From: an uncultured delta proteobacterium
Lineage (GTDB): Bacteria; Desulfobacterota; Binatia; UBA9968
Length of the DNA: 64,000 nt
Assembly: GCA_963737905.1 (NCBI GenBank)
Contig: CAVTUQ010000004.1
Coordinates: 28,206 to 92,205 of the forward strand
Direction of reading: 5' to 3'
In this document: piece after piece, positions 948-28,574 of the stretch
Layout of the letters: the number at the start of each line of letters is the position of its first letter
Numbering within the stretch: the first letter of the stretch is position 1
The notes under the pieces: model-generated
What the model saw: only the letters and a program-made list of their open reading frames with translations
Told to the model about the DNA's origin: nothing
Databases searched by the model: none
Made by a program: the position numbers and the translations under genes

Positions 948-3347
948 ATGGCTAAAATCGCAAAACCGCCCACTCAGCCTTATCCCGACCTCACCATTCT
1001 CGAAGATATCAGCACCTTGATCAGCCATTCGCGTGATCTCCAACAGACCCTCAATAGCATCGTGGCTACGGTGGCGGAACGGATGGAAACCGAGGTTTGC
1101 TCCATCTATATTCTCGACCGCCAGAACAAACGGCTCACCCTGCGCGCGACCATGGGACTGGACGAGGAGTCCGTAGGCAAGGTGTCCATGGGCACGGGGG
1201 AGGGCCTAACGGGACTAGTCATTGAGAGAATGAAGCCGGTGATGGTCGTCGATGCCCTAAAGCATCCTCGTTACAAATACTTTCCGGAAACCCACGAAGA
1301 ACGCTTTCACTCCTTTCTTGGCGTTCCGCTCATCGACCAAAAATTACCGCTGGGAGTCCTGGTCGTTCAAACTTCACGGCGACGCGAGTTCTCGCGGGAT
1401 GAAATACGTTTGCTGACTACTATTTCGGCCCAGGTTTCAAGCATTCTTATTCAAGCTCGCCTGGCGGATTCGCTGCGGAGCAAAGAGGAGGAACGTAAGG
1501 AATATCACAAGCGGATGGTGGAAGCGCTGCGCAAGCTGCGCTCTTATGAGGGTAGGCGTCGGGAGAAGACCCCAGGGGCACACCATCGCTGGCGCGGCCG
1601 ACTGAGGGGTCTCTCCGCCTCTCCGGGTTTTGGCCGCGGCCGCGCCTTCGTTCTCAAACCACGTATGCAAATCAGCGCCATTCAGAAGAAAAAAGCGAAA
1701 AATCCCGAGCGCGAGATGGAGCGGTTCCGCGGGGCTGTCGAAAGAGGCATCGAACAGATAAACGTCGTGAAGCATCGAATGAGCGGCCTCATTTCAAAAG
1801 AGGAAGGGGCGATCTTCGACGTGTACCGGCTCATTCTCGAAGATCCCGCAATTATCCAACAAATCGAAGCTCAAATCCGAAAGGAACAAGTGATCGCCGA
1901 ATACGCCATCCGGGTCGTGTTCGAGCAATACCTCCAGTCGATTGCGCAAATCGATGATGCCTATTTGCGCGAACGAACCACGGACGTCAAAGATGCGGCG
2001 CAGAGACTTTTGGAGAACCTCTCGGGCGCAACTACTCAGCACATCGAAATTCCCGAAGATGCTGTCTTGGTGGCAGAGGATCTTTCACCGGCCGATCTCA
2101 GTATGCTTGAAGGGGACCGGTTTCGCGGCATTGTTCTGGCTACGGGCGGCGTCACCACTCACGCGTCGATTCTGGCGAAATCCTTTGAAATTCCTACTGT
2201 AGTGGCCGTAGAGAATTTGCTGGAATCGGTTCATCAGGGAGATGCCCTCGTTGTCGATGGTAACGCCGGTGTGGTCTACGTCAACCCCAGCCAGGAAATC
2301 ACCCGTGAATATGATCGGCTGGTGCGTGATTATGCCGACCTTAATCGCGAGCTGGAGGAACTGAAGGATGAACCCGCGGAAACTATAGACGGCCACCGGG
2401 TCTCGCTCTATGCCAATATCGGTCTCTTAAGCGATATTGCTTTTGCGCATATGCACGGAGCCCAAGGGGTGGGCTTGTATCGCACGGAGATTGCGTTTCT
2501 GGCGCACCGAGATTTTCCCAGCGAAGAGGAGCAATACTCCCTGTATAAGCGAGTGGTCGAGGGAATGGCAGGAAAACCGGTGACCATCCGGACCCTGGAT
2601 ATCGGCGCTGATAAATATCCCTCTTACATACGAAGCCCGAGCGTCGAGCCCAATCCGTTTCTAGGATGGCGCTCTATTCGTATATCGCTTGAGGTTGAAG
2701 AGGTCTTCAAAACCCAGCTAAGAGCGATCCTCAGGGTGGGTGACCTCGGCCGGGTTAGAATGCTCATACCCATGGTATCGAGCTTGGAGGAGATATTCAA
2801 AATCAAAGAACTGGTGGCGGAAGCCAAGGAAGAACTTCGTCACGAAGGTACGCCCTTCGACCGGCAGATGGAGCTCGGGATTATGGTGGAAGTCCCTTCT
2901 GCGGTGCAGCTCGCTGATCGCTTTCTCCGGGAGGTGGACTTCCTGAGTATTGGTACGAATGACCTGATTCAATACATACTGGCCGTCGATCGGAGCAACC
3001 GGCGAGTTGCTGACCTGTACGAGCCACTGCATCCCGCCGTGCTGTCCGCTTTGCAGACGACAATCGAAGCGGGCAAAAAGGAAGGGAAGCGAGTTGGAAT
3101 GTGCGGCGAAATGTCGGGTGACCCGCTTTCTGCCCTACTGCTATTGGGAATGGGACTCGAGGAGTTCAGTATGGGCTCCCTATACGTCCCCGTGATCAAG
3201 AAAACCATTCGGTCTGTCACCTATCAAGCGGCGAAATCGGCTGCACAAATAGTTCTTGAGATGGATACGGTGGGGGAGATCAAGAAGTATCTTTTCGAAC
3301 AAATGCGCGAGTTGGGCATGGTGGAGCTGTTAGAGATGTACCATTGA
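948..3347 (+). CDS. ptsP: phosphoenolpyruvate-protein phosphotransferase with N-terminal GAF domain (EI-Ntr)
   Basis: 799 aa. GAF-like N-terminus, then enzyme I core motifs LSASPGFGRGRAF, GGVTTHASILAKSFEIPTV, GVGLYRTEIAF, LSIGTNDLIQY, GMCGEMSGDP. Confidence 0.88.
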   Translation: MAKIAKPPTQPYPDLTILEDISTLISHSRDLQQTLNSIVATVAERMETEVCSIYILDRQNKRLTLRATMGLDEESVGKVSMGTGEGLTGLVIERMKPVMVVDALKHPRYKYFPETHEERFHSFLGVPLIDQKLPLGVLVVQTSRRREFSRDEIRLLTTISAQVSSILIQARLADSLRSKEEERKEYHKRMVEALRKLRSYEGRRREKTPGAHHRWRGRLRGLSASPGFGRGRAFVLKPRMQISAIQKKKAKNPEREMERFRGAVERGIEQINVVKHRMSGLISKEEGAIFDVYRLILEDPAIIQQIEAQIRKEQVIAEYAIRVVFEQYLQSIAQIDDAYLRERTTDVKDAAQRLLENLSGATTQHIEIPEDAVLVAEDLSPADLSMLEGDRFRGIVLATGGVTTHASILAKSFEIPTVVAVENLLESVHQGDALVVDGNAGVVYVNPSQEITREYDRLVRDYADLNRELEELKDEPAETIDGHRVSLYANIGLLSDIAFAHMHGAQGVGLYRTEIAFLAHRDFPSEEEQYSLYKRVVEGMAGKPVTIRTLDIGADKYPSYIRSPSVEPNPFLGWRSIRISLEVEEVFKTQLRAILRVGDLGRVRMLIPMVSSLEEIFKIKELVAEAKEELRHEGTPFDRQMELGIMVEVPSAVQLADRFLREVDFLSIGTNDLIQYILAVDRSNRRVADLYEPLHPAVLSALQTTIEAGKKEGKRVGMCGEMSGDPLSALLLLGMGLEEFSMGSLYVPVIKKTIRSVTYQAAKSAAQIVLEMDTVGEIKKYLFEQMRELGMVELLEMYH

Positions 3348-3420
3348 CGTCACGATCGGGATACCGACGCTTGTCTTCGGTCGAGGTTTGATTTCGTAAT
3401 CAGAATAGGGTATAAAATAA

Positions 3421-3438
3421 TTCGAACGATCGTTCGAA
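3421..3438. promoter_or_regulatory. perfect 18-bp palindrome TTCGAACGATCGTTCGAA, candidate operator
   Basis: Read directly. Lies between a TATAAA-like box and the RBS, 25 bp upstream of the ATG at 3463. Confidence 0.4.
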
Positions 3439-3462: not shown

Positions 3463-4569
3463 ATGGGTAAAATCTCTACTTTTGATGATTGGATTGATAA
3501 CTTTCGGCAATGGCAAAAAGATATCGGCTACGATCCGGAACTGCTGGGTGACTACACGTTCGAAACCAAGCTGGGCGAGTTGCACAGCCCGGAAATTGAG
3601 TTCGGAGATTTCAAGGGACAGCGCAAATGGGAGCGTATTGGCCAAATCCCGAATCAGTCGATCCGCGATGCTCTGATGAATCTAATCGTCTATCAGGGGG
3701 ACACCGAGTTCGCATCGGTGGAACAACAAAAAAACTTGCTAGATACCGCGCCCACGGAATACGATCGCCAGGCGCTTACCCGGGTGAACAGTGAGGAGAT
3801 GCGCCACGGGTGGCAAATGTGCTACTTGTTGGTTAATTATTTTGGTGACTCGGGAAAACTTGAGGCGAGAAAGCTCCTGGAACGGAGAGCATTCAGAGGG
3901 GACCGGCTTCTAGGTTCTTTCAACGCACCGGTCAATAACTGGCTGGACTTTTTTACGTATACGGAATTTGTTGACCGCGATGGCAAATATCAGTTAACCA
4001 TGCTGAGCCATTCCGCCTTTGCCCCCTTGGCCGAAAGCGTCACCGCGATGCTGAAGGAAGAATTCTTCCACATGTTTACCGGCCACACCGGCTTAACGCG
4101 AATTTTGAGAGCCGGAAAAATTCCTCTTCCCATCGTGCAAAAATATTTCAATAAATGGCTGTCAACGGCTTACGATCTATTCGGTACGGATCATTCGTCG
4201 TCAGCGAACTGGTCCTATGTTTGGGGATTGAAAGGAAGATTTGATGAGCATGAGGCCAAAGTTGCTGCGGACAAGAACAAATTGAATGATCTGGCCCGCG
4301 ATCACTATCTTACCGAATGCGCTAAGCTTATCGATCAGCTCAACCAACTGGTTCCGGAAGGACAACCCAGGCTCTACGCTCCGCACCTGTATTTTAACCG
4401 TTCCATCGGCGAGCATGTCGGTAAGACTTACAGTGTCACGGGTGAACTATTATCATCCGAAGCCTACAAGAAGCATCTAGCGGAAGTTCTTCCGACCCCT
4501 GAGGATGAGAGAATATTGAGCGAAATTATCAATGGGAAAGACTGGGTTACGCAGATACAAATGAATTAG
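3463..4569 (+). CDS. ferritin-like diiron oxygenase, BoxB/PaaA-family-like
   Basis: 368 aa. Two ExxH diiron motifs (NSEEMRHGWQM, LKEEFFHMFTG). The stretch QGDTEFASVEQQ...DRDGKYQL parallels benzoyl-CoA epoxidase BoxB as recalled. Shorter than BoxB at the N-terminus. Confidence 0.65.
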   Translation: MGKISTFDDWIDNFRQWQKDIGYDPELLGDYTFETKLGELHSPEIEFGDFKGQRKWERIGQIPNQSIRDALMNLIVYQGDTEFASVEQQKNLLDTAPTEYDRQALTRVNSEEMRHGWQMCYLLVNYFGDSGKLEARKLLERRAFRGDRLLGSFNAPVNNWLDFFTYTEFVDRDGKYQLTMLSHSAFAPLAESVTAMLKEEFFHMFTGHTGLTRILRAGKIPLPIVQKYFNKWLSTAYDLFGTDHSSSANWSYVWGLKGRFDEHEAKVAADKNKLNDLARDHYLTECAKLIDQLNQLVPEGQPRLYAPHLYFNRSIGEHVGKTYSVTGELLSSEAYKKHLAEVLPTPEDERILSEIINGKDWVTQIQMN

Positions 4570-4606
4570 GCACCCAGATAATTCCGTCAGCTACGAGGAG
4601 AGGTTT

Positions 4607-4930
4607 GTGAAAACGCTTTGTCTCGTCTGTCAAAACGTGGATTGCAAAAATAGAGGCTCGGAGCAACTCATGGCCGAACTTCAGAAGCGAGTTGAAGCTA
4701 AAGGGCTCGCCGATGTCGAAGTAAAACCCTACATGTGTTTCGGGGCCTGCCAGGAGGGACCCAACATCGTCCTCTATCCTGAAAAAAACTGGTATGCCGG
4801 GGTGAAAGTCGATGACCTTGACGAGATCACGGATCGTCTTGCCGGCGGCCCTCACGTCCAACGCTTGGACACCATCGATTCCTCGTTGAAAGAACTCATC
4901 TATCAACTTCTTGACACAGGGGTGTTTTAA
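4607..4930 (+). CDS. thioredoxin-like [2Fe-2S] ferredoxin (NuoE-like)
   Basis: 107 aa, GTG start after GAGGAGAGG. Cys pattern C-x4-C-x30-C-x3-C (CQNVDC...CFGAC) typical of Trx-like 2Fe-2S ferredoxins. Confidence 0.7.
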   Translation: MKTLCLVCQNVDCKNRGSEQLMAELQKRVEAKGLADVEVKPYMCFGACQEGPNIVLYPEKNWYAGVKVDDLDEITDRLAGGPHVQRLDTIDSSLKELIYQLLDTGVF

Positions 4931-4933
4931 GTC

Positions 4934-6196
4934 ATGGAGGGTATTCTTTTCCCTCACGCTGTGGTCGAGGGACGAGAAGGATTAAAGGAGTATCAGGCAC
5001 GCGGCGGATACGCCGGCGTTGCTAAAGCGATCCAGTCCACCCCCGAGGATATCATCAAAGAAGTCGCCGACGCCGGTCTTCGAGGTCGCGGCGGCGCAGG
5101 GTTTCCCACCGGGAAAAAATGGTCCTTCACGCGCGAATGCCCTGAACAACCACGGTACCTAGTTTTAAATGGCGGGGAGGATGAGCCCGGTAGCAAAAAG
5201 GATCGGATGCTCATGGAGCATCTCCCTCACCTCGTGATTGAAGGTGTGATTCTTAGCGCCTATGCGATCGGGGCATCCAAAGCTTACCTTTACATTAACG
5301 CGAATTACGAAGCGGCGATAAATAGCATCAATGATGCGTTGACCGAGGCCAAAGCCGCCGGCTACTGGGGTGACAACGTGCTGGGAAGTAATTTTACTCT
5401 GGACATCGAGCTCAAACCGGCACCCCACAACTACGTTGCCGGTGAAGATACCGCAGCCCTCGAGGTAATCGAAGGCAAAAAAGCTTGGCCGCGCCAGAAG
5501 CCTCCGTTTCCGGTTACGGTCGGGCTCTTCGGCAAACCCACGGCGGTCAACAACGTGGAGACTCTTGCCAATGTGCCGCCGATCATTTTGCATGGGGCCG
5601 AGTGGTACCGCAAATTTGGCACTCCCGAAAGCCCAGGCACGATGATCTTTTCGCTGAATGATGACGTCAATCGTCCGGGGGTTTACGAGCTCCCCTTCGG
5701 CACGCCGCTCAGGTATTTGATCGAAGAATGTGGCGGTGGAATGAAGGGCGGCAAAAAGATCAAAGCCATCATGCCTGCGGCGCCGTCTTCGGCTTTCCTC
5801 CCGGCAGACAAGATGGACACACCGTTGGATCACAACTCGATGCGGGAAGCGGGTTCGGGACTCGGTTGCGGTGTCGTGCGCTTGATTGACGAAGAAACCT
5901 GTATCGTAGAAGAAGTGTTAAAGATCTCCGAATTCTTCACCGTCGAATCCTGCGGCCAATGCCCCGCCTGCCGGATGGAAACCAACACCCTTACGTCATT
6001 GCTCAAGAAAGTTCAGCAGGGACAAGGCGGCCAACCGATACTCGAGCAATTCGGAAAAATCCTCGCTTTTAACAAAGGTAAAGGCTTCTGCAATCTCATC
6101 GCCATGCCCGGTCCACCCATTGAAAGCGCCCTCAAACTTTTTCCCGAAGATTTCGAGGCCCACCTCGCTACCGGCAAATGCCCCGCGGCTAATTAA
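4934..6196 (+). CDS. NuoF-like NADH-binding FMN / [4Fe-4S] flavoprotein
   Basis: 420 aa. GLRGRGGAGFPTGKKW (NADH/FMN site) and ESCGQCPACRMET (4Fe-4S) motifs of complex I 51-kDa subunit homologues. Confidence 0.82.
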   Translation: MEGILFPHAVVEGREGLKEYQARGGYAGVAKAIQSTPEDIIKEVADAGLRGRGGAGFPTGKKWSFTRECPEQPRYLVLNGGEDEPGSKKDRMLMEHLPHLVIEGVILSAYAIGASKAYLYINANYEAAINSINDALTEAKAAGYWGDNVLGSNFTLDIELKPAPHNYVAGEDTAALEVIEGKKAWPRQKPPFPVTVGLFGKPTAVNNVETLANVPPIILHGAEWYRKFGTPESPGTMIFSLNDDVNRPGVYELPFGTPLRYLIEECGGGMKGGKKIKAIMPAAPSSAFLPADKMDTPLDHNSMREAGSGLGCGVVRLIDEETCIVEEVLKISEFFTVESCGQCPACRMETNTLTSLLKKVQQGQGGQPILEQFGKILAFNKGKGFCNLIAMPGPPIESALKLFPEDFEAHLATGKCPAAN

Positions 6197-6394: not shown

Positions 6395-7225
6395 ATGAGA
6401 CTCGCACCGATCCACTGGCCCCACGATGCAAAAATTGCTGTCAGCTTCTTCGTAGCCTTTGAAGCTTTTGAAAAATATTCGCAGTACCGCCAAGGCGGCG
6501 ACAAACCGGATTATGCGTCTCTCGCCTACGGCGAATACGGAGGCAAGGCGGGTATCTGGCGCATCATGGACGTGCTAAACCGCAACGGCGTTAAAGGCAC
6601 TATCGATACCAACGGCCGTATCGCCGAAGACTTTCCTGATGCGTTGAAAGAACTCCATGCCGCGAGTCATGAAATCGTTGGCCACGGTTGGGTCAATGAC
6701 ACAGCTCTGTCCTCGCTCGATGCCGTTAAAGAAAGAACTTTGATCAAACGAACATTGGACGCCATCGCATCGGTCACCGGCAAACGTCCCGTGGGTTGGG
6801 TCAGCCCCGGGCATAGAGTCAACGAATATACATTCGGCAACTTCGTCGACGAAGGAATATTCTGGACTGGAGATCTGCCAGGACCTGACATTCCACAGCA
6901 CCGCATTGTCAATGGCAAACCCTTGATCATCATGCCGCGGCTCGATTACGCCAATGATCTATCGCTCATCTTTAACGCGAAAAATCCCGCCCGGGTTTAT
7001 TTTGACAGCTTCAAAGCAGCCTTTGATTGTCTCTACGCGGAGGGCCAGGCGGGCGCGCCGAAGCTCATCGATTGTCTCGTGCACGCGCATATCGGCGGCA
7101 GACCCAACATTATAGGGGTGTTCGAAGAATGCGTCCGCTATGCCAAGGGTTTTCCCGAGGTATGGTTCGCGACCAAAGGGGAAATCGCCAAATATTACCT
7201 CGACACTTACGTCACTAAATCGTAA
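6395..7225 (+). CDS. polysaccharide deacetylase / PuuE-like family hydrolase
   Basis: 276 aa. N-terminal WPxxAKIAVSF pattern and HEIVGHGW motif typical of the deacetylase fold. Distant paralogue at 14685-15533. Confidence 0.65.
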   Translation: MRLAPIHWPHDAKIAVSFFVAFEAFEKYSQYRQGGDKPDYASLAYGEYGGKAGIWRIMDVLNRNGVKGTIDTNGRIAEDFPDALKELHAASHEIVGHGWVNDTALSSLDAVKERTLIKRTLDAIASVTGKRPVGWVSPGHRVNEYTFGNFVDEGIFWTGDLPGPDIPQHRIVNGKPLIIMPRLDYANDLSLIFNAKNPARVYFDSFKAAFDCLYAEGQAGAPKLIDCLVHAHIGGRPNIIGVFEECVRYAKGFPEVWFATKGEIAKYYLDTYVTKS

Positions 7226-7239
7226 CCGGAGGAACTGAG

Positions 7240-8421
7240 ATGGCATCGGGTGGAAAAGACGAAAAATATCTCGAGGGACTGAAATCTGGCGAGCTTCTCT
7301 TGAAACTCACCTGGGACGAATGGCTCACGTTGAGCGCACCGTTTGAGAACGTAGACTTTTCAGTCGAAGACGTCACGGCGCGCTACAACAGAAACGGTTA
7401 CGATTGGGATATGCATGGCACGCTCTATACCCCCGCGAAAGAAGTTAACTCCCAGCGTGCCTTCGTATGTTTCCACGGCGGAGCGGGCAGCGAAAAGATC
7501 ATGGACCTCACGCCGGACGGCAGACCCGGTTTGGCCCGGGTTCTAGCTTCCCAAGGCTTCAAAGCTCTAGCTCTCACTTACCCGGGTCACTATCCTCCCG
7601 GAGGCGTTTGGAAAAACCCTATCCCGGAACGCATGCCGGTTTATCTCATGGACCACGAACTCCCTATCGAAGAGATCAAAGATCGAAATTTGAAGTGCAC
7701 GTTCAACACCATTCTCCAGGGGGCGGGACTATTGACGGATCAACATCTGAGCGGCCGGGAAATCCTGGGATTTGGCCATTCCACGGGCGGACCTATGGCA
7801 GCCCATCTGACGCGCTTTTCGAAAAAGACAAAAGTCATCGGACTGGTTGGATTTGGCAGCGGCGGTCCAGATGGCTGGCGACTCGAGTGGAGAAACAAGA
7901 CTGGCGCGGAAAAATATGTGGAAAAGCCGGTCGATCATGTGTCGCGACGGTCGCCTGATTCTTTTCGTGAGTCGGGCTACGTCGATCCACCGGACCTTAC
8001 GCCCTGGGGAGGTGCCGACGATTACTTTCGACTCATCAGCCCGCTGCGCTCCCAGATGAAAACCAGCCTGTGCGACAACCAGCACAACGCAGCCGTGGGA
8101 ATTCTCGAAGAATATCCCAAGCGCACGGGCCTCCCGCGGGAAGAATACTTCGATCACCTGGAAGAGCCGGATCCGAATTGGCTCAAAACCATCAGAGTTC
8201 TTCTCACCGCCGGCGAGAATGACAAAGGCCACTGGGTCAGAGGCGATCGTCTGCAAGATAAGCGGGAAATGTTCATGGGCGCAAAGTACGCGGCTGCCAC
8301 TCGCGGAGCGCACGTCGTGCTAATACCCCGTTACGGGCATGTGGGTTATGCCGAGCTTCACAACGAGAAGATCGCTTACCTGTGGCTCTGGGCGGTTAAA
8401 TCAGGTTATTTCGATAGCTAA
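7240..8421 (+). CDS. alpha/beta-fold hydrolase (putative)
   Basis: 393 aa. FHGGAGS oxyanion-like motif and GFGHSTGG nucleophile elbow (GxSxG). Confidence 0.55.
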   Translation: MASGGKDEKYLEGLKSGELLLKLTWDEWLTLSAPFENVDFSVEDVTARYNRNGYDWDMHGTLYTPAKEVNSQRAFVCFHGGAGSEKIMDLTPDGRPGLARVLASQGFKALALTYPGHYPPGGVWKNPIPERMPVYLMDHELPIEEIKDRNLKCTFNTILQGAGLLTDQHLSGREILGFGHSTGGPMAAHLTRFSKKTKVIGLVGFGSGGPDGWRLEWRNKTGAEKYVEKPVDHVSRRSPDSFRESGYVDPPDLTPWGGADDYFRLISPLRSQMKTSLCDNQHNAAVGILEEYPKRTGLPREEYFDHLEEPDPNWLKTIRVLLTAGENDKGHWVRGDRLQDKREMFMGAKYAAATRGAHVVLIPRYGHVGYAELHNEKIAYLWLWAVKSGYFDS

Positions 8422-8495
8422 CCTAACAATCACGCACAGGAGGACATCACGGTCTCTGACTTTAATAAATGGCTTTTCACAAAGGAGAGATAAGA

Positions 8496-9584
8496 ATGCA
8501 TACAAAAATAATTGCCAGTTCTGCGTCTCCATTTGCACTCATAGCCGCAATCCTCTTATCGACCGTCGCGGCATCCTATGGCGCTCAGAGCAAACCCTTA
8601 TCCGTGGCCGATCTCGCCTTTTACCAAGGCGCCGATCGCGAGAAAATCCTCCTGGAAGGCGCTAAAAAAGAAGGGCAAGTGACTTTCTACACGTCAAACA
8701 CTTGGGTCGCCGGTCCAGTGTCCCAGGAGTTCGAGAAAAAGTACCCTTTCGTTAAAGCCAATGTATGGCGCAGCGATTCCAAATCATTGCTGAAACGGCT
8801 AACGGAAGAGGTGGCGGCCGGGCGGTTTATTGGCGATGTCGTTGAAAGCAGTCCTGAGTATATGGAGATCCTTATGAGGAGCAACATCCTCCAAGAGTAT
8901 TTGTCCCCGGAACTGAGTGCCTACGACGACGATGCAAAAATCAAAGGGAAGAGGGGCGTCTATGCGTGGACCAACCGAGAGATCTATATCAGCCTGGGGT
9001 TTAACACCAAGATCATAGCTCCCGCGGAAGCGCCAAAAACCATCAAGGATTATCTCGACCCTAAATGGAAAGGAAAAATGTCCATCGCCGGGACCACCAC
9101 GGGGACCCAGTGGGTCGGAGCTCTCATGGAGTCCATGGGTCGCGAGTTTCTGGAAAAACTAAGCGCGCAAGAAATCAATGTTCAGAATATGTCCGGCGCG
9201 GCTTTGTCCGGGCTGGTTGCCTCCGGCGAAGTCCCTTTGTCGCCCACCATCTTCAATTCCAACATCTTCACCCATAAAGAAAAAGGTGCCCCGGTCGAAT
9301 GGAGACCGCTGGATCCTGTTATAGCGGGAGTGGGCACTTCAGGCATGGTCCTCAATGCACCCCATCCTCACGCTGCCCTGCTTTTTCTTGATTACCTCCA
9401 TTCCAAACTCGGGCAGCAGGTCGCCATGAAGGGCGGCCTCAGTTCGGCGCGCAATGACATCGGTTCTCTGGAACAGAAGTTCAAGAAGGTCTACATCGAA
9501 AGCCAATACACGCCAGAGGAATTCGAGAAGAAAATCGAGGAATGGGAAAGCTTGATGCGCAAGCTTTTCATTCGGAAACGCTAG
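8496..9584 (+). CDS. ABC transporter periplasmic solute-binding protein (family 1, iron/polyamine-like)
   Basis: ATG at 8496 follows AAAGGAGAG. Signal peptide MHTKIIASSASPFALIAAILLSTVAASYG. Strongly similar paralogue at 13487-14562. Confidence 0.75.
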   Translation: MHTKIIASSASPFALIAAILLSTVAASYGAQSKPLSVADLAFYQGADREKILLEGAKKEGQVTFYTSNTWVAGPVSQEFEKKYPFVKANVWRSDSKSLLKRLTEEVAAGRFIGDVVESSPEYMEILMRSNILQEYLSPELSAYDDDAKIKGKRGVYAWTNREIYISLGFNTKIIAPAEAPKTIKDYLDPKWKGKMSIAGTTTGTQWVGALMESMGREFLEKLSAQEINVQNMSGAALSGLVASGEVPLSPTIFNSNIFTHKEKGAPVEWRPLDPVIAGVGTSGMVLNAPHPHAALLFLDYLHSKLGQQVAMKGGLSSARNDIGSLEQKFKKVYIESQYTPEEFEKKIEEWESLMRKLFIRKR

Positions 9585-9637
9585 TTCAGCCGGAATATAT
9601 TTCAGCTTACCGACTCATGACAATGAGAGAGCATTGA

Positions 9638-10582
9638 ATGACTTCAATTGTTCTAATCACCGGCGCCAATGGCTTCATCGGCTCCCACACAACTCTGCTC
9701 ATGGAATCACTCGGTCACAAGGTCATTCCCGTGGACGCCGTGCCTCGCTCGACAGATCTTTCCTTGCTCGGGATTCAAACACCCAGTCACCTCATGGATG
9801 TCACGGATGTATTGGCTTTCCGAAAGCTCTGCGACAAGGAAAAGCCGACCCATATCTTTCACGCTGCGCACCCGCCTCGGAACGAAGATCCCTCGGTGCT
9901 CAACTTTTGTTATCATGCAATGACCAATATTCTCGAGGCGGCAAAGACACTTAAAATGCGGCGGGTCGTCTATTCAAGCTCCGCTTCTATTTACGGCCAG
10001 TTGAAAAAGCCGGACGGCGGTCTCATTAAGGAAGAGGACGCGGTTACGATTTATCCCACCTATTTCTATCGCGCCGCGAAAACCGTTTCGGAGTGGATGG
10101 GCGACTTTTACAAAGAAAAACACGGCGTAGACTTTGTCGCGTTGAGATACTCTTCTGTTTACGGCCCCGGTCTGTACAGAAGCATTCCCTTAGAACTCAA
10201 AAGAGGCATCCTCGGCCAACCCTGCCGGCCCTTTCTCACACGCCCGCTTGACGATTTGATCTATGTGGACGACGTTGTCGATGCGATTCGCCGCGCGCTC
10301 TTTTCAGACAAACCCCTCAGCCGCGCCTATAACATCGGCCTCGACAAGACCTACACGAACGAGGATCTCACCCAGGCCATTCGGAAAGCGCTGCCGGATC
10401 TGAAATTCGAAATCGGCGAACATCCCAACGCCGCCGAAGTGGGCCCCCATCGCTTACGTAACCCGCTCGATATTTCCCTTGCGCAACGAGAACTGGGCTG
10501 GACCCCGAAGATTTATCTCGAAGAAGGCATCGCACGGTTAGCAAAATGGTTGCAAGAGAACAAAGCCAAGCGGCAAATGTGA
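9638..10582 (+). CDS. NAD-dependent epimerase/dehydratase (extended SDR)
   Basis: 314 aa. ITGANGFIGSH Rossmann motif and YRAAK catalytic YxxxK. Confidence 0.8.
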   Translation: MTSIVLITGANGFIGSHTTLLMESLGHKVIPVDAVPRSTDLSLLGIQTPSHLMDVTDVLAFRKLCDKEKPTHIFHAAHPPRNEDPSVLNFCYHAMTNILEAAKTLKMRRVVYSSSASIYGQLKKPDGGLIKEEDAVTIYPTYFYRAAKTVSEWMGDFYKEKHGVDFVALRYSSVYGPGLYRSIPLELKRGILGQPCRPFLTRPLDDLIYVDDVVDAIRRALFSDKPLSRAYNIGLDKTYTNEDLTQAIRKALPDLKFEIGEHPNAAEVGPHRLRNPLDISLAQRELGWTPKIYLEEGIARLAKWLQENKAKRQM

Positions 10583-27887: not shown

Positions 27888-28574
27888 TTAATTTTCGACC
27901 TGCCACCGTCCGCGTTTCGTAGGATGACGTAAGGCCGAGTGCAGTCGCTTGAGAAACATTCGACGCGATAGCTCTTTGGCGCCGAGGTTCAACATGTGTT
28001 CCGTGGTCATTTGTGAATCGATAAAGTGAAACCCCCAATTCTTCAGCTTCTCCACCAGAGTCGCGAGAGCCACTTTCGAAGCATCGCTTTTCAAATGAAA
28101 CATCGATTCGCCAAAAAAAGCCTTGCCTAATGAAACGCCGTAGAGCCCGCCGGCCAGTTTTTCCCCCAACCAACTCTCGACCGAGTGGGCGTAACCCAGA
28201 CCGTGAAGGTTGATGTAAGCCTCCTGCATCTCTTTCGTGATCCAGGTACCGTTCTGCGTTTCGCGGGGCACCACTGCGCAGGCCTGGATGACCTCTTCGA
28301 AAGCATGATCGAACGTGACCTGAAAAACCCCTTTTTTAAGGGTCTTACCTAAACTTCGAGAAATCTTGAAGTCTTCAAGATCGAGAATTAAACGAGGATC
28401 CGGCGACCACCAAAGGATGGGTTGGTCGTCCGAATACCAGGGAAATATTCCCACGCGATAGGCCTCCAGCAACCTCTCATGGGACAGGTCCCCGCCGACG
28501 GCGAGCAATCCGCTCGGATCGGCATAGTCCGGCGGAGGAAAAATCGGCTCGTCTACCAATCGAAATATCGGCAT
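27888..28574 (-). CDS. aat: leucyl/phenylalanyl-tRNA-protein transferase
   Basis: 228 aa. GLLAVGGDLSHERLLEAYRVGIFPWY, ILWWSPDPR and YAHSVESW are characteristic of L/F-transferase. Confidence 0.85.
   Translation of the reverse strand: MPIFRLVDEPIFPPPDYADPSGLLAVGGDLSHERLLEAYRVGIFPWYSDDQPILWWSPDPRLILDLEDFKISRSLGKTLKKGVFQVTFDHAFEEVIQACAVVPRETQNGTWITKEMQEAYINLHGLGYAHSVESWLGEKLAGGLYGVSLGKAFFGESMFHLKSDASKVALATLVEKLKNWGFHFIDSQMTTEHMLNLGAKELSRRMFLKRLHSALRHPTKRGRWQVEN

Follow-up and report, generated by a model that had tools for sequence, protein, structure and literature searches.

The closest described relatives of the system considered here act on the aromatic ring of coenzyme A (CoA) thioesters. 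In BoxAB (Azoarcus/Aromatoleum evansii; Protein Data Bank [PDB] entries 3PER, 3PM5, and 3Q1G), the oxygenase BoxB is a monomeric diiron protein without a structural subunit, its reductase BoxA carries FAD and two [4Fe-4S] clusters and uses NADPH, and the system is completed by a two-domain BoxC. In the phenylacetyl-CoA 1,2-epoxidase PaaABC(D)E, the reductase PaaE is of the ferredoxin-NADP-reductase type, with a plant-type [2Fe-2S] cluster. To our knowledge, bacterial multicomponent diiron oxygenases receive their electrons from ferredoxin-NAD(P)-reductase-type proteins such as PaaE, BoxA, and the reductases of soluble diiron monooxygenases. Here we describe a three-gene locus in which a BoxB-like oxygenase gene is instead followed by genes for a thioredoxin (Trx)-like ferredoxin and a flavoprotein resembling NuoF and HydB. 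The locus occupies positions 3463 to 6196, on the plus strand, of a 64,000-nucleotide stretch (the window; positions 28,206 to 92,205 of contig CAVTUQ010000004.1, here C4) of a 6.7-Mb, 87%-complete metagenome-assembled genome (GCA_963737905.1) from an uncultured delta proteobacterium of soil, the relatives of which are titled Candidatus Binatia in databases. Its three open reading frames are tightly packed, with gaps of 37 and 3 nt.

3463-4569, plus strand: P0001, short BoxB-family diiron oxygenase, 368 amino acids, putative aryl-CoA epoxidase
4607-4930, plus strand: P0002, Trx-like [2Fe-2S] ferredoxin, 107 amino acids, putative mobile electron carrier
4934-6196, plus strand: P0003, NuoF/HydB-core-like flavoprotein, 420 amino acids, putative NADH-oxidizing entry point

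We consider it probable (roughly 60%) that these genes form one operon for a three-component, NADH-dependent aryl-CoA epoxidase with a new type of reductase. P0003 would oxidize NADH at its FMN and pass single electrons to its own [4Fe-4S] cluster, and P0002 would carry them from P0003 to the diiron center of P0001, which would activate O2 and most likely epoxidize an aryl-CoA ring (that of benzoyl-CoA or a close analogue, with phenylacetyl-CoA also possible). The ferredoxin-flavoprotein pair would thus stand in for BoxA. An initial annotation, made from the sequence of the window, had proposed such a chain from NADH via FMN and Fe-S clusters to the diiron site, with a reductase type unreported for this enzyme class, and the present analysis supports that proposal. 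We infer the catalytic and electron transfer steps, the substrate, and the regulator from sequence, fold, synteny, conservation of an operator, and evidence of selection.

BoxB is by far the closest family to P0001. The protein passed the Pfam model PF05138 (PaaA_PaaC; 43.3 bits; gathering cutoff, 28.5), a domain also found in PaaABC(D)E, and its closest solved relative is BoxB 3PER (E = 3.6e-55), with 42 to 45% identity in the core and the same diiron four-helix-bundle fold. PaaA lies far behind (~20% similarity; E = 1e-6), and the PaaA equivalog model TIGR02156 was not reached (39.1 bits versus a cutoff of 280). The BoxB model TIGR03225 matched strongly, in three stretches (241.7 bits; E = 1.5e-71), but below its equivalog cutoff of 499.1, and nothing above that cutoff was found in a scan of the whole genome. 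The full-length architecture of BoxB (~470 residues) is not reached by the 368 residues of P0001. Score and length thus both place P0001 outside the BoxB equivalog. The shortfall had been thought to comprise the initial ~100 residues; instead, alignment to full-length BoxB-type sequences and 3PER distributed it over ~17 residues at the N terminus, a ~22-residue N-terminal insert, a ~19-residue loop after the ligand helix, a further loop of ~25 to 40 residues, and a C-terminal tail of ~15 residues. The diiron core begins at residue ~30 of P0001, which corresponds to residue ~71 of BoxB.

The residues that define the active site of BoxB were mapped onto P0001 with the chain numbering of 3PER, which is that of the literature. 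The diiron ligands of BoxB are E120, E150, H153, D211, E240, and H243, and benzoyl-CoA is oriented by Q116, T119, S123, F193, F203, F206, and T210 (PMC5489048). All six ligands are present in P0001 (E82, E112, H115, D171, E200, and H203) and are invariant across 39 homologues that are 59 to 100% identical to it; the two ExxH motifs and the other motifs for which the protein had initially been called BoxB-like are present and map onto these ligands. Five of the seven orienting residues are retained (Q78, T81, S85, F153, and F163) and are invariant or nearly so in the same homologues, the equivalents of Q116, T119, S123, and F193 being invariant. F206 is replaced by Y166, and T210 is replaced by V170, a position that is valine or isoleucine among the homologues. 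The AlphaFold2 model of P0001 is confident (pLDDT, 92.4; pTM, 0.90), and the top 11 Foldseek matches to it in the PDB were all BoxB chains (3Q1G, 3PM5, and 3PER; E of ~1e-23), with a TM score of 0.87 to 0.88 when normalized on the query and 0.68 to 0.70 when normalized on BoxB. Both the sequence and the model, which superposes on BoxB, therefore keep the metal ligands.

The reductase pair differs from that of both epoxidases. P0002 passed PF01257 (30.7 bits; cutoff, 24.8) over only the C-terminal half of the model, and it has the four cysteines initially proposed for a Trx-like [2Fe-2S] ferredoxin (C8-x4-C13-x30-C44-x3-C48). It is without the N-terminal helical domain of NuoE, and the NuoE model TIGR01958 matched at model positions 72 to 147 of 148 with 30.3 bits versus a cutoff of 142.4. 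Its top PDB matches were Aquifex Fd4 (1F37; 6.5e-11) and residues 7 to 91 of HydB (7Q4V_B; 3.2e-10), and matches to NuoE/NDUFV2 were weak (~5e-3); P0002 resembles the Trx-like ferredoxins of Aquifex and Clostridium and the N-terminal [2Fe-2S] domain of HydB more than it resembles NuoE. A second, monocistronic copy of the ferredoxin gene (67% identical) lies among unrelated genes at C9:118520-118885.

P0003 matched PF01512 (Complex1_51K; 152.6 bits) and PF10589 (NADH_4Fe-4S; 58.6 bits) over their full lengths. Its FMN/NADH motifs are intact (GRGGAGF at 51 and GEDEPG at 81), as are the cysteines of an N3-type [4Fe-4S] cluster (C340-x2-C343-x2-C346-x39-C386), in agreement with its first description as a NuoF homologue. 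However, the score with the NuoF model TIGR01959 (444.7 bits) was below the cutoff of 558.65. The top PDB matches were NfnB (9N5U_B) and HydB (7Q4V_B), at E values of ~1e-109 to 1e-106; taken with further HydB subunits of electron-bifurcating hydrogenases, the range was ~1e-109 to 1e-104, with the NuoF subunit of complex I close behind. P0003 ends 10 residues past the N3 domain and is missing the C-terminal 2x[4Fe-4S] domain. In HydB, NfnB, and HoxF (7Q4V_B, 9N5U_B, and 7T2R_B), which belong to electron-bifurcating hydrogenases and related NAD(H)-linked complexes and are the nearest solved relatives of P0003, the equivalents of the two proteins form one chain, whereas here they are two polypeptides encoded in the order of the HydB domains, ferredoxin before flavoprotein. 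Because of this order and the PDB matches, P0002 and P0003 are best described as a split HydB/NfnB-type subunit trimmed at its C terminus, where it lacks the ferredoxin domain, rather than as a NuoE/NuoF pair. The original designation as a NuoE/NuoF-like reductase therefore holds for the NuoF-like part but not for the NuoE-like part, given the missing domain and the stronger matches to HydB and Fd4.

The two proteins have the FMN/NADH motifs, the N3-type CxxCxxC...C cluster, and the Trx-like [2Fe-2S] fold in common with NuoE/NuoF of complex I, yet both fall below the respective equivalog cutoffs, and the genome has a separate nuo operon (C5:68425 onward) as well as a 42%-identical NuoF at C2:288405. 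No hydrogenase, formate dehydrogenase, or nuo genes adjoin the pair in any locus examined, and no gene for HydA, HydC, NuoE, or a hydrogenase or dehydrogenase catalytic subunit is nearby; here the partner is the oxygenase. No NuoF/HydB-type reductase feeding such an oxygenase was found in the literature searched.

The trio also differs from the Box and Paa systems in what surrounds it. Like BoxB, P0001 has no adjoining PaaB/PaaC-type gene. In contrast to BoxA, the reductase consists of a [2Fe-2S] ferredoxin and an FMN/[4Fe-4S] flavoprotein and is probably NADH dependent. The absence of BoxA and BoxC, initially noted for the window, extends to the whole genome at its 87% completeness: the best match to BoxA (TIGR03224) was 23.5 bits versus a cutoff of 459.2, and the best match to BoxC (TIGR03222) was 75.6 bits versus 712.3, with single-domain crotonases only. 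The operator described below is of the TetR/PaaR type. Hence the trio, which fails the BoxA and BoxC criteria, is placed by its sequences outside the Box system, though it would work like BoxAB. With PaaABC(D)E it has in common PF05138, the predicted CoA-thioester ring-epoxidation logic, a PaaR-type operator, and, for the downstream steps, a PaaG-like crotonase and an aldehyde dehydrogenase. However, genes for PaaB, PaaC, PaaD, and PaaE are not alongside, the neighbors being genes for PtsP, the ferredoxin, the NuoF-like protein, and a deacetylase-like protein, and PaaE is unlike P0002 and P0003.

The gene order is conserved in relatives. Orthologues of P0001 (73 to 95% identical) are here called type 1, and a paralogue (59 to 66% identical) is called type 2. 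A short-BoxB match was obtained from each of the 41 genomes sampled in the order, although one of them was counted as without any in the crotonase comparison below; type 1 was found in 33. Synteny was judged only where the contig was long enough. The order type 1, ferredoxin, NuoF-like gene was found, with its spacing kept, in eight of eight fetched genomes from three families and in all 18 of the further Binatia loci, although one of these contigs breaks off within the ferredoxin gene; one metagenome contig shows the same order. The trio also occurs, its order unchanged, in G086, a genome from a different class of the same phylum (59, 61, and 61% identity). At one locus from a long-read metagenome-assembled genome (L047:8001-9105), the type-1 gene aligned in two pieces (93% and 74% identity) that overlap at 8800-8804, which suggests a frameshift or sequencing error. 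Phylum-wide statistics of co-occurrence with the NuoF-like gene were dropped, as only 3 of 301 evenly drawn genomes, few of them Binatia, were positive, G086 among them.

Two features precede the trio.

3388-3416, plus strand: sigma-70-like promoter, with -35 box TTGATT (3388-3393), a 17-nt spacer, and -10 box TATAAA (3411-3416)
3421-3438: putative PaaR-type repressor operator, a perfect 18-bp palindrome (TTCGAACGATCGTTCGAA) with the core CGAACG-N2-CGTTCG

The operon would be driven from this promoter of its own, which was omitted by the consensus promoter scan because the scan demands T at position 6 of the -10 box; in other Binatia loci, too, the operator is immediately preceded by a TTGAYNT...TAnAAT-like arrangement. 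The P0002 reading frame has a GTG start codon and an AGGAG ribosome-binding site, and the start codon of P0003 lies 3 nt past the ferredoxin stop, a spacing that suggests translational coupling. The palindrome begins 5 nt after the -10 box. Its core was found with at most one mismatch, as CGAACG-N2-CGTTYG, in 24 of 24 Binatia type-1 loci, 28 to 101 nt before the start codon, and the exact core is unique within the 6.7-Mb genome. In other phyla, the exact core was found in 19 of 61 type-2 loci (0.05 expected by chance), always at the start of the operon and just upstream of a TetR gene. The sequence at 3423-3436, CGAACGATCGTTCG, fits the PaaR operator consensus CNAACGNNCGTTNG, which is bound with nanomolar affinity by PaaR of Thermus thermophilus, a TetR protein that represses the paa operon and is freed by phenylacetyl-CoA (PMC6651687, PMC9493321). 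These findings point to an aryl-CoA-responsive repressor and a regulon logic that would be common to both oxygenase types. Here, a TetR-type, PaaR-like repressor encoded elsewhere would bind 3421-3438 and presumably be released by an aryl-CoA.

The genome's only homologue of the TetR protein of type-2 operons is 42% identical to it and is encoded at C12:151201-151971, with no such site in its own promoter. It is divergent from crotonase, crotonase, hydroxyacyl-CoA dehydrogenase, and thiolase genes (C12:146726-151971), a layout like that of a type-2 operon minus the oxygenase and the operator. A genome-wide regulon could not be drawn from the operator scan, as the exact core occurs at the P0001 promoter alone and weaker matches are at about chance frequency. 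One half-matching core (TCGAACGCTCGTTCC) at C5:68339, ~85 nt upstream of nuoA, is likewise at about chance level and probably not meaningful. Weaker matches at or near chance level also lie in an element of ~40 nt that is repeated at C32:57690 and C32:62220, 4.5 kb apart, both copies containing GTGAACGCTCGTTCTA followed by CTCACGCAAGATTCCGTCGGG.

Type 2 is found in Acidobacteriota, Gemmatimonadota, Eisenbacteria, Rokubacteria, Eremiobacterota, and Binatia, and reductase genes almost never adjoin it. Among 61 type-2 loci, a crotonase gene lies directly upstream in 36 and a TetR gene heads the operon in 25; aldehyde dehydrogenase genes are also neighbors. The crotonase scores highest with PaaG and alternative oxepin-CoA hydrolase models. 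In an unrooted tree, BoxB stands, on a very long branch, beside the ferredoxin-associated clade of short forms (support, 97/94). Given that branch length and the missing root, a derivation of canonical BoxB from the short form was considered but no direction is claimed. Next to the type-2 subclade nearest type 1 is a gene for a 420-residue HdrD/GlpC-like Fe-S protein with a 4Fe-4S dicluster and a CCG domain (L023:9117-10379, L025:6651-7946, L061:15725-16996, and L091:3164-4435). This protein, which has a 47%-identical homologue in the present genome (C2:97098-98354), may be an alternative electron route.

Two acidobacteria (G045 and G049) encode an orthologue of P0003 (53 to 56% identity), and their type-2 oxygenases, in the clade nearest type 1, have a Trx-like ferredoxin gene of their own adjoining. 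In G045 there is a lone ferredoxin/NuoF-like pair 810 kb from the oxygenase gene. The NuoF-like gene of G049 (53% identical) lies apart from the gene for the short BoxB paralogue and heads an operon with crotonase and 3-hydroxyacyl-CoA dehydrogenase genes, divergent from an aldehyde dehydrogenase gene. The intergenic region there contains the operator with one mismatch, and the operator occurs twice between the divergent ferredoxin and crotonase-oxygenase genes of the same genome. Since these unlinked genes share an operator, they provide functional evidence that is independent of adjacency.

Later steps of the pathway would be encoded elsewhere in the Binatia genome. Ring opening and aldehyde oxidation may be carried out by the products of an unlinked pair of genes on C35, for a single-domain crotonase and an aldehyde dehydrogenase, that are 58% and 52% identical to G049 genes; in G049 the orthologues of this pair flank the type-2 and NuoF-like genes. 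The C35-type crotonase was found in 37 of 41 genomes of the order and was missing from the sole genome counted as without any short BoxB, a suggestive co-occurrence that is not significant (counts, 37/3/0/1; Fisher P of ~0.1, hand calculation). A gene on C2 that exceeds the cutoff of the benzoate-CoA ligase model TIGR02262 (545 bits; cutoff, 375) and adjoins an aldehyde dehydrogenase gene may be a further unlinked pathway gene. There is no canonical paaABCDE cluster at the genome's three PaaA-like loci, so phenylacetyl-CoA remains a candidate substrate. These loci encode stand-alone PaaA/PaaC-like paralogues of ~240 residues (C12:49922-50638, C26:18588-19310, and C11:27947-28705) that resemble Sulfolobus 4MUD, none of them inside a paa cluster.

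An aryl-CoA thioester is the probable substrate of P0001, to judge from its pocket residues, the resemblance of the operator to that of PaaR, and the gene neighborhoods of the paralogues, so that the substrate, at first called unknown, is not fully open. It is conceivable that the oxygenase acts on something other than an aromatic CoA ester. An acyl-CoA of aliphatic or alicyclic type would be one example, and a non-CoA metabolite undergoing biosynthetic hydroxylation or desaturation another; the analogy to BoxB chemistry would then be a distant one. P0001 does score below the BoxB equivalog cutoff, two ring-adjacent pocket residues are changed (F206Y and T210V), a BoxC-type enzyme was not found in the genome, and the neighbors of the paralogue are ordinary beta-oxidation-type enzymes. 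The family is also very abundant in soil metagenomes: in a word-index search with 8,000 candidates scored, at least 5,677 clusters (90% identity), the majority of soil origin, matched P0001 at an E value of ≤0.001. However, five of the seven benzoyl-positioning residues are invariant, including Q116, which hydrogen bonds to the thioester; the operator is of the PaaR type; the crotonase partner scores highest with PaaG and alternative oxepin-CoA hydrolase models; and the genome encodes a benzoate-CoA ligase above cutoff. A substrate other than an aromatic CoA ester seems unlikely.

Without their substrate, diiron oxygenases become uncoupled and reduce O2. The trio could be an NADH oxidase that scavenges oxygen or counters oxidative stress, the diiron site reducing O2 or peroxide without an organic substrate in the manner of rubrerythrin or flavodiiron proteins; the wide occurrence of the trio within the order (33 of 41 genomes) and the lack of linked pathway genes in Binatia fit such a role. 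However, substrate pocket residues would not be expected to remain invariant in such a system, the operon is under an operator of the aryl-CoA-sensing repressor type, and the paralogues are located in catabolic operons. In addition, type 1 is missing from 8 of the 41 genomes, two of them closed (G037 and G038), for which reason a housekeeping function, suspected at first from the short-BoxB match in every genome, was rejected; the oxygenase is dispensable in the way that a catabolic gene is. We therefore regard oxygen scavenging as very improbable.

Five species of one genus (G032, G035, G037, G038, and G040) provide information on the role of the reductase pair, as ~1 kb of the type-1 gene has been lost in each. 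A decaying C-terminal remnant of ~47 codons, with a common right-hand boundary, is left (L119:7352-7675 in G038; L120, L121, L122, and L125), and G038 has retained the promoter and operator. In all five, the ferredoxin and NuoF-like genes are intact, with dN/dS of 0.00 to 0.20 at dS of 0.14 to 0.66, and none has lost type 2. A single ferredoxin of this type was found in each of four genomes searched from the genus, two with the deletion and two with intact type 1. Since the pair has been kept under selection after the type-1 deletion, it probably also serves the paralogous oxygenase, as it probably does in other genomes that have one, and a wholly different client is also possible. The reading of the trio as an NADH-to-FMN-to-Fe-S-to-diiron system is thus upheld, whereas its initial description as self-contained is too strong, as it would be to call the reductase dedicated, since the pair persists without the oxygenase.

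These genomes could also be taken to indicate that the pair is a general NADH:ferredoxin-type module that merely lies beside the oxygenase gene, the oxygenase using any ferredoxin and the pair having other main clients. The purifying selection in the absence of type 1 and the second, stand-alone ferredoxin copy in the present genome would fit such a module. In other phyla, moreover, the pair is dispensed with by most of the oxygenase's relatives, and the only transient interaction between BoxA and BoxB makes promiscuity of the reductase plausible (PMC4498308). Several observations argue otherwise. Adjacency and order are kept from 100% down to ~60% identity and in two classes; the ferredoxin and flavoprotein genes are 3 nt apart behind the oxygenase's regulated promoter; the unlinked NuoF-like gene of G049 has the operator and sits amid genes for CoA-ester enzymes; and G021, G024, and G036, the only genomes of the order to lack the pair, have no type 1 either. 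The retention of the paralogue in all five deletion genomes, and of this ferredoxin alone in the two of them searched, is better explained by sharing of the pair between two oxygenases. A general module with other main clients is accordingly an outside prospect.

A number of findings weigh against a three-component epoxidase with P0003 as its reductase. The score of P0001 is about half of the BoxB equivalog cutoff, and certain BoxB-specific segments are missing. NuoF-type proteins normally require a NuoE or HydC partner, and none is encoded at the locus. In Binatia, the operon has no linked gene for ring opening, and an operator of the PaaR type is as suggestive of phenylacetyl-CoA as of benzoyl-CoA. 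Outside Binatia, 8 of 10 type-2 genomes hold only a complex-I-like NuoF (37 to 44% identity), and within the order itself the type-2 carriers G024 and G036 have no NuoF-like orthologue, so a NuoF-like reductase is not a general requirement of the short-BoxB family. Finally, the purifying selection on the pair in genomes without type 1 indicates that it has a function independent of the P0001 orthologue.

The genes on either side of the trio are less constant than the trio itself. Its upstream neighbor is kept within the family only.

948-3347, plus strand: GAF-PtsP gene (ptsP)

Downstream, a gap of 198 nt with a promoter-like site precedes deacetylase-like, alpha/beta-hydrolase, binding-protein, and short-chain dehydrogenase/reductase (SDR) genes (6395-10582), which were rejected as fixed partners, as their presence and order vary even inside the family. 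The first of these, a polysaccharide deacetylase/PuuE-like gene at 6395-7225, directly follows the NuoF-like gene, and a gene of the same kind also heads the aldehyde dehydrogenase/benzoate-CoA ligase operon at C2:680055-680966. Whether such genes link the trio to the C2 operon is uncertain, as the genome contains many paralogues.

If correct, the feeding of an oxygenase by a NuoF/HydB-type flavoprotein would be a new solution to the supply of electrons, and it would give a new function to a kind of module whose other associations are with respiration, hydrogenases, and formate dehydrogenases. The HydB-like split module, recruited from machinery of the hydrogenase/complex I type, might be a trans-acting NADH reductase common to at least two short BoxBs, within an aerobic aryl-CoA ring cleavage pathway that is independent of BoxA and BoxC, employs single-domain crotonases, aldehyde dehydrogenases, and a PaaR-type regulon, and is widespread in dominant soil phyla without cultured members (Binatia, Acidobacteriota, Gemmatimonadota, and others); we offer this wider proposal tentatively, at somewhat worse than even odds. 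The three small, soluble proteins, with a predicted operator and effector class, are directly testable in a laboratory host. The short-BoxB oxygenase family is very large and unstudied, and its members are routinely named "benzoyl-CoA 2,3-epoxidase subunit B" in databases, though the usual partners are absent. As a consequence, annotation-based surveys may miscount the box pathway in soils.

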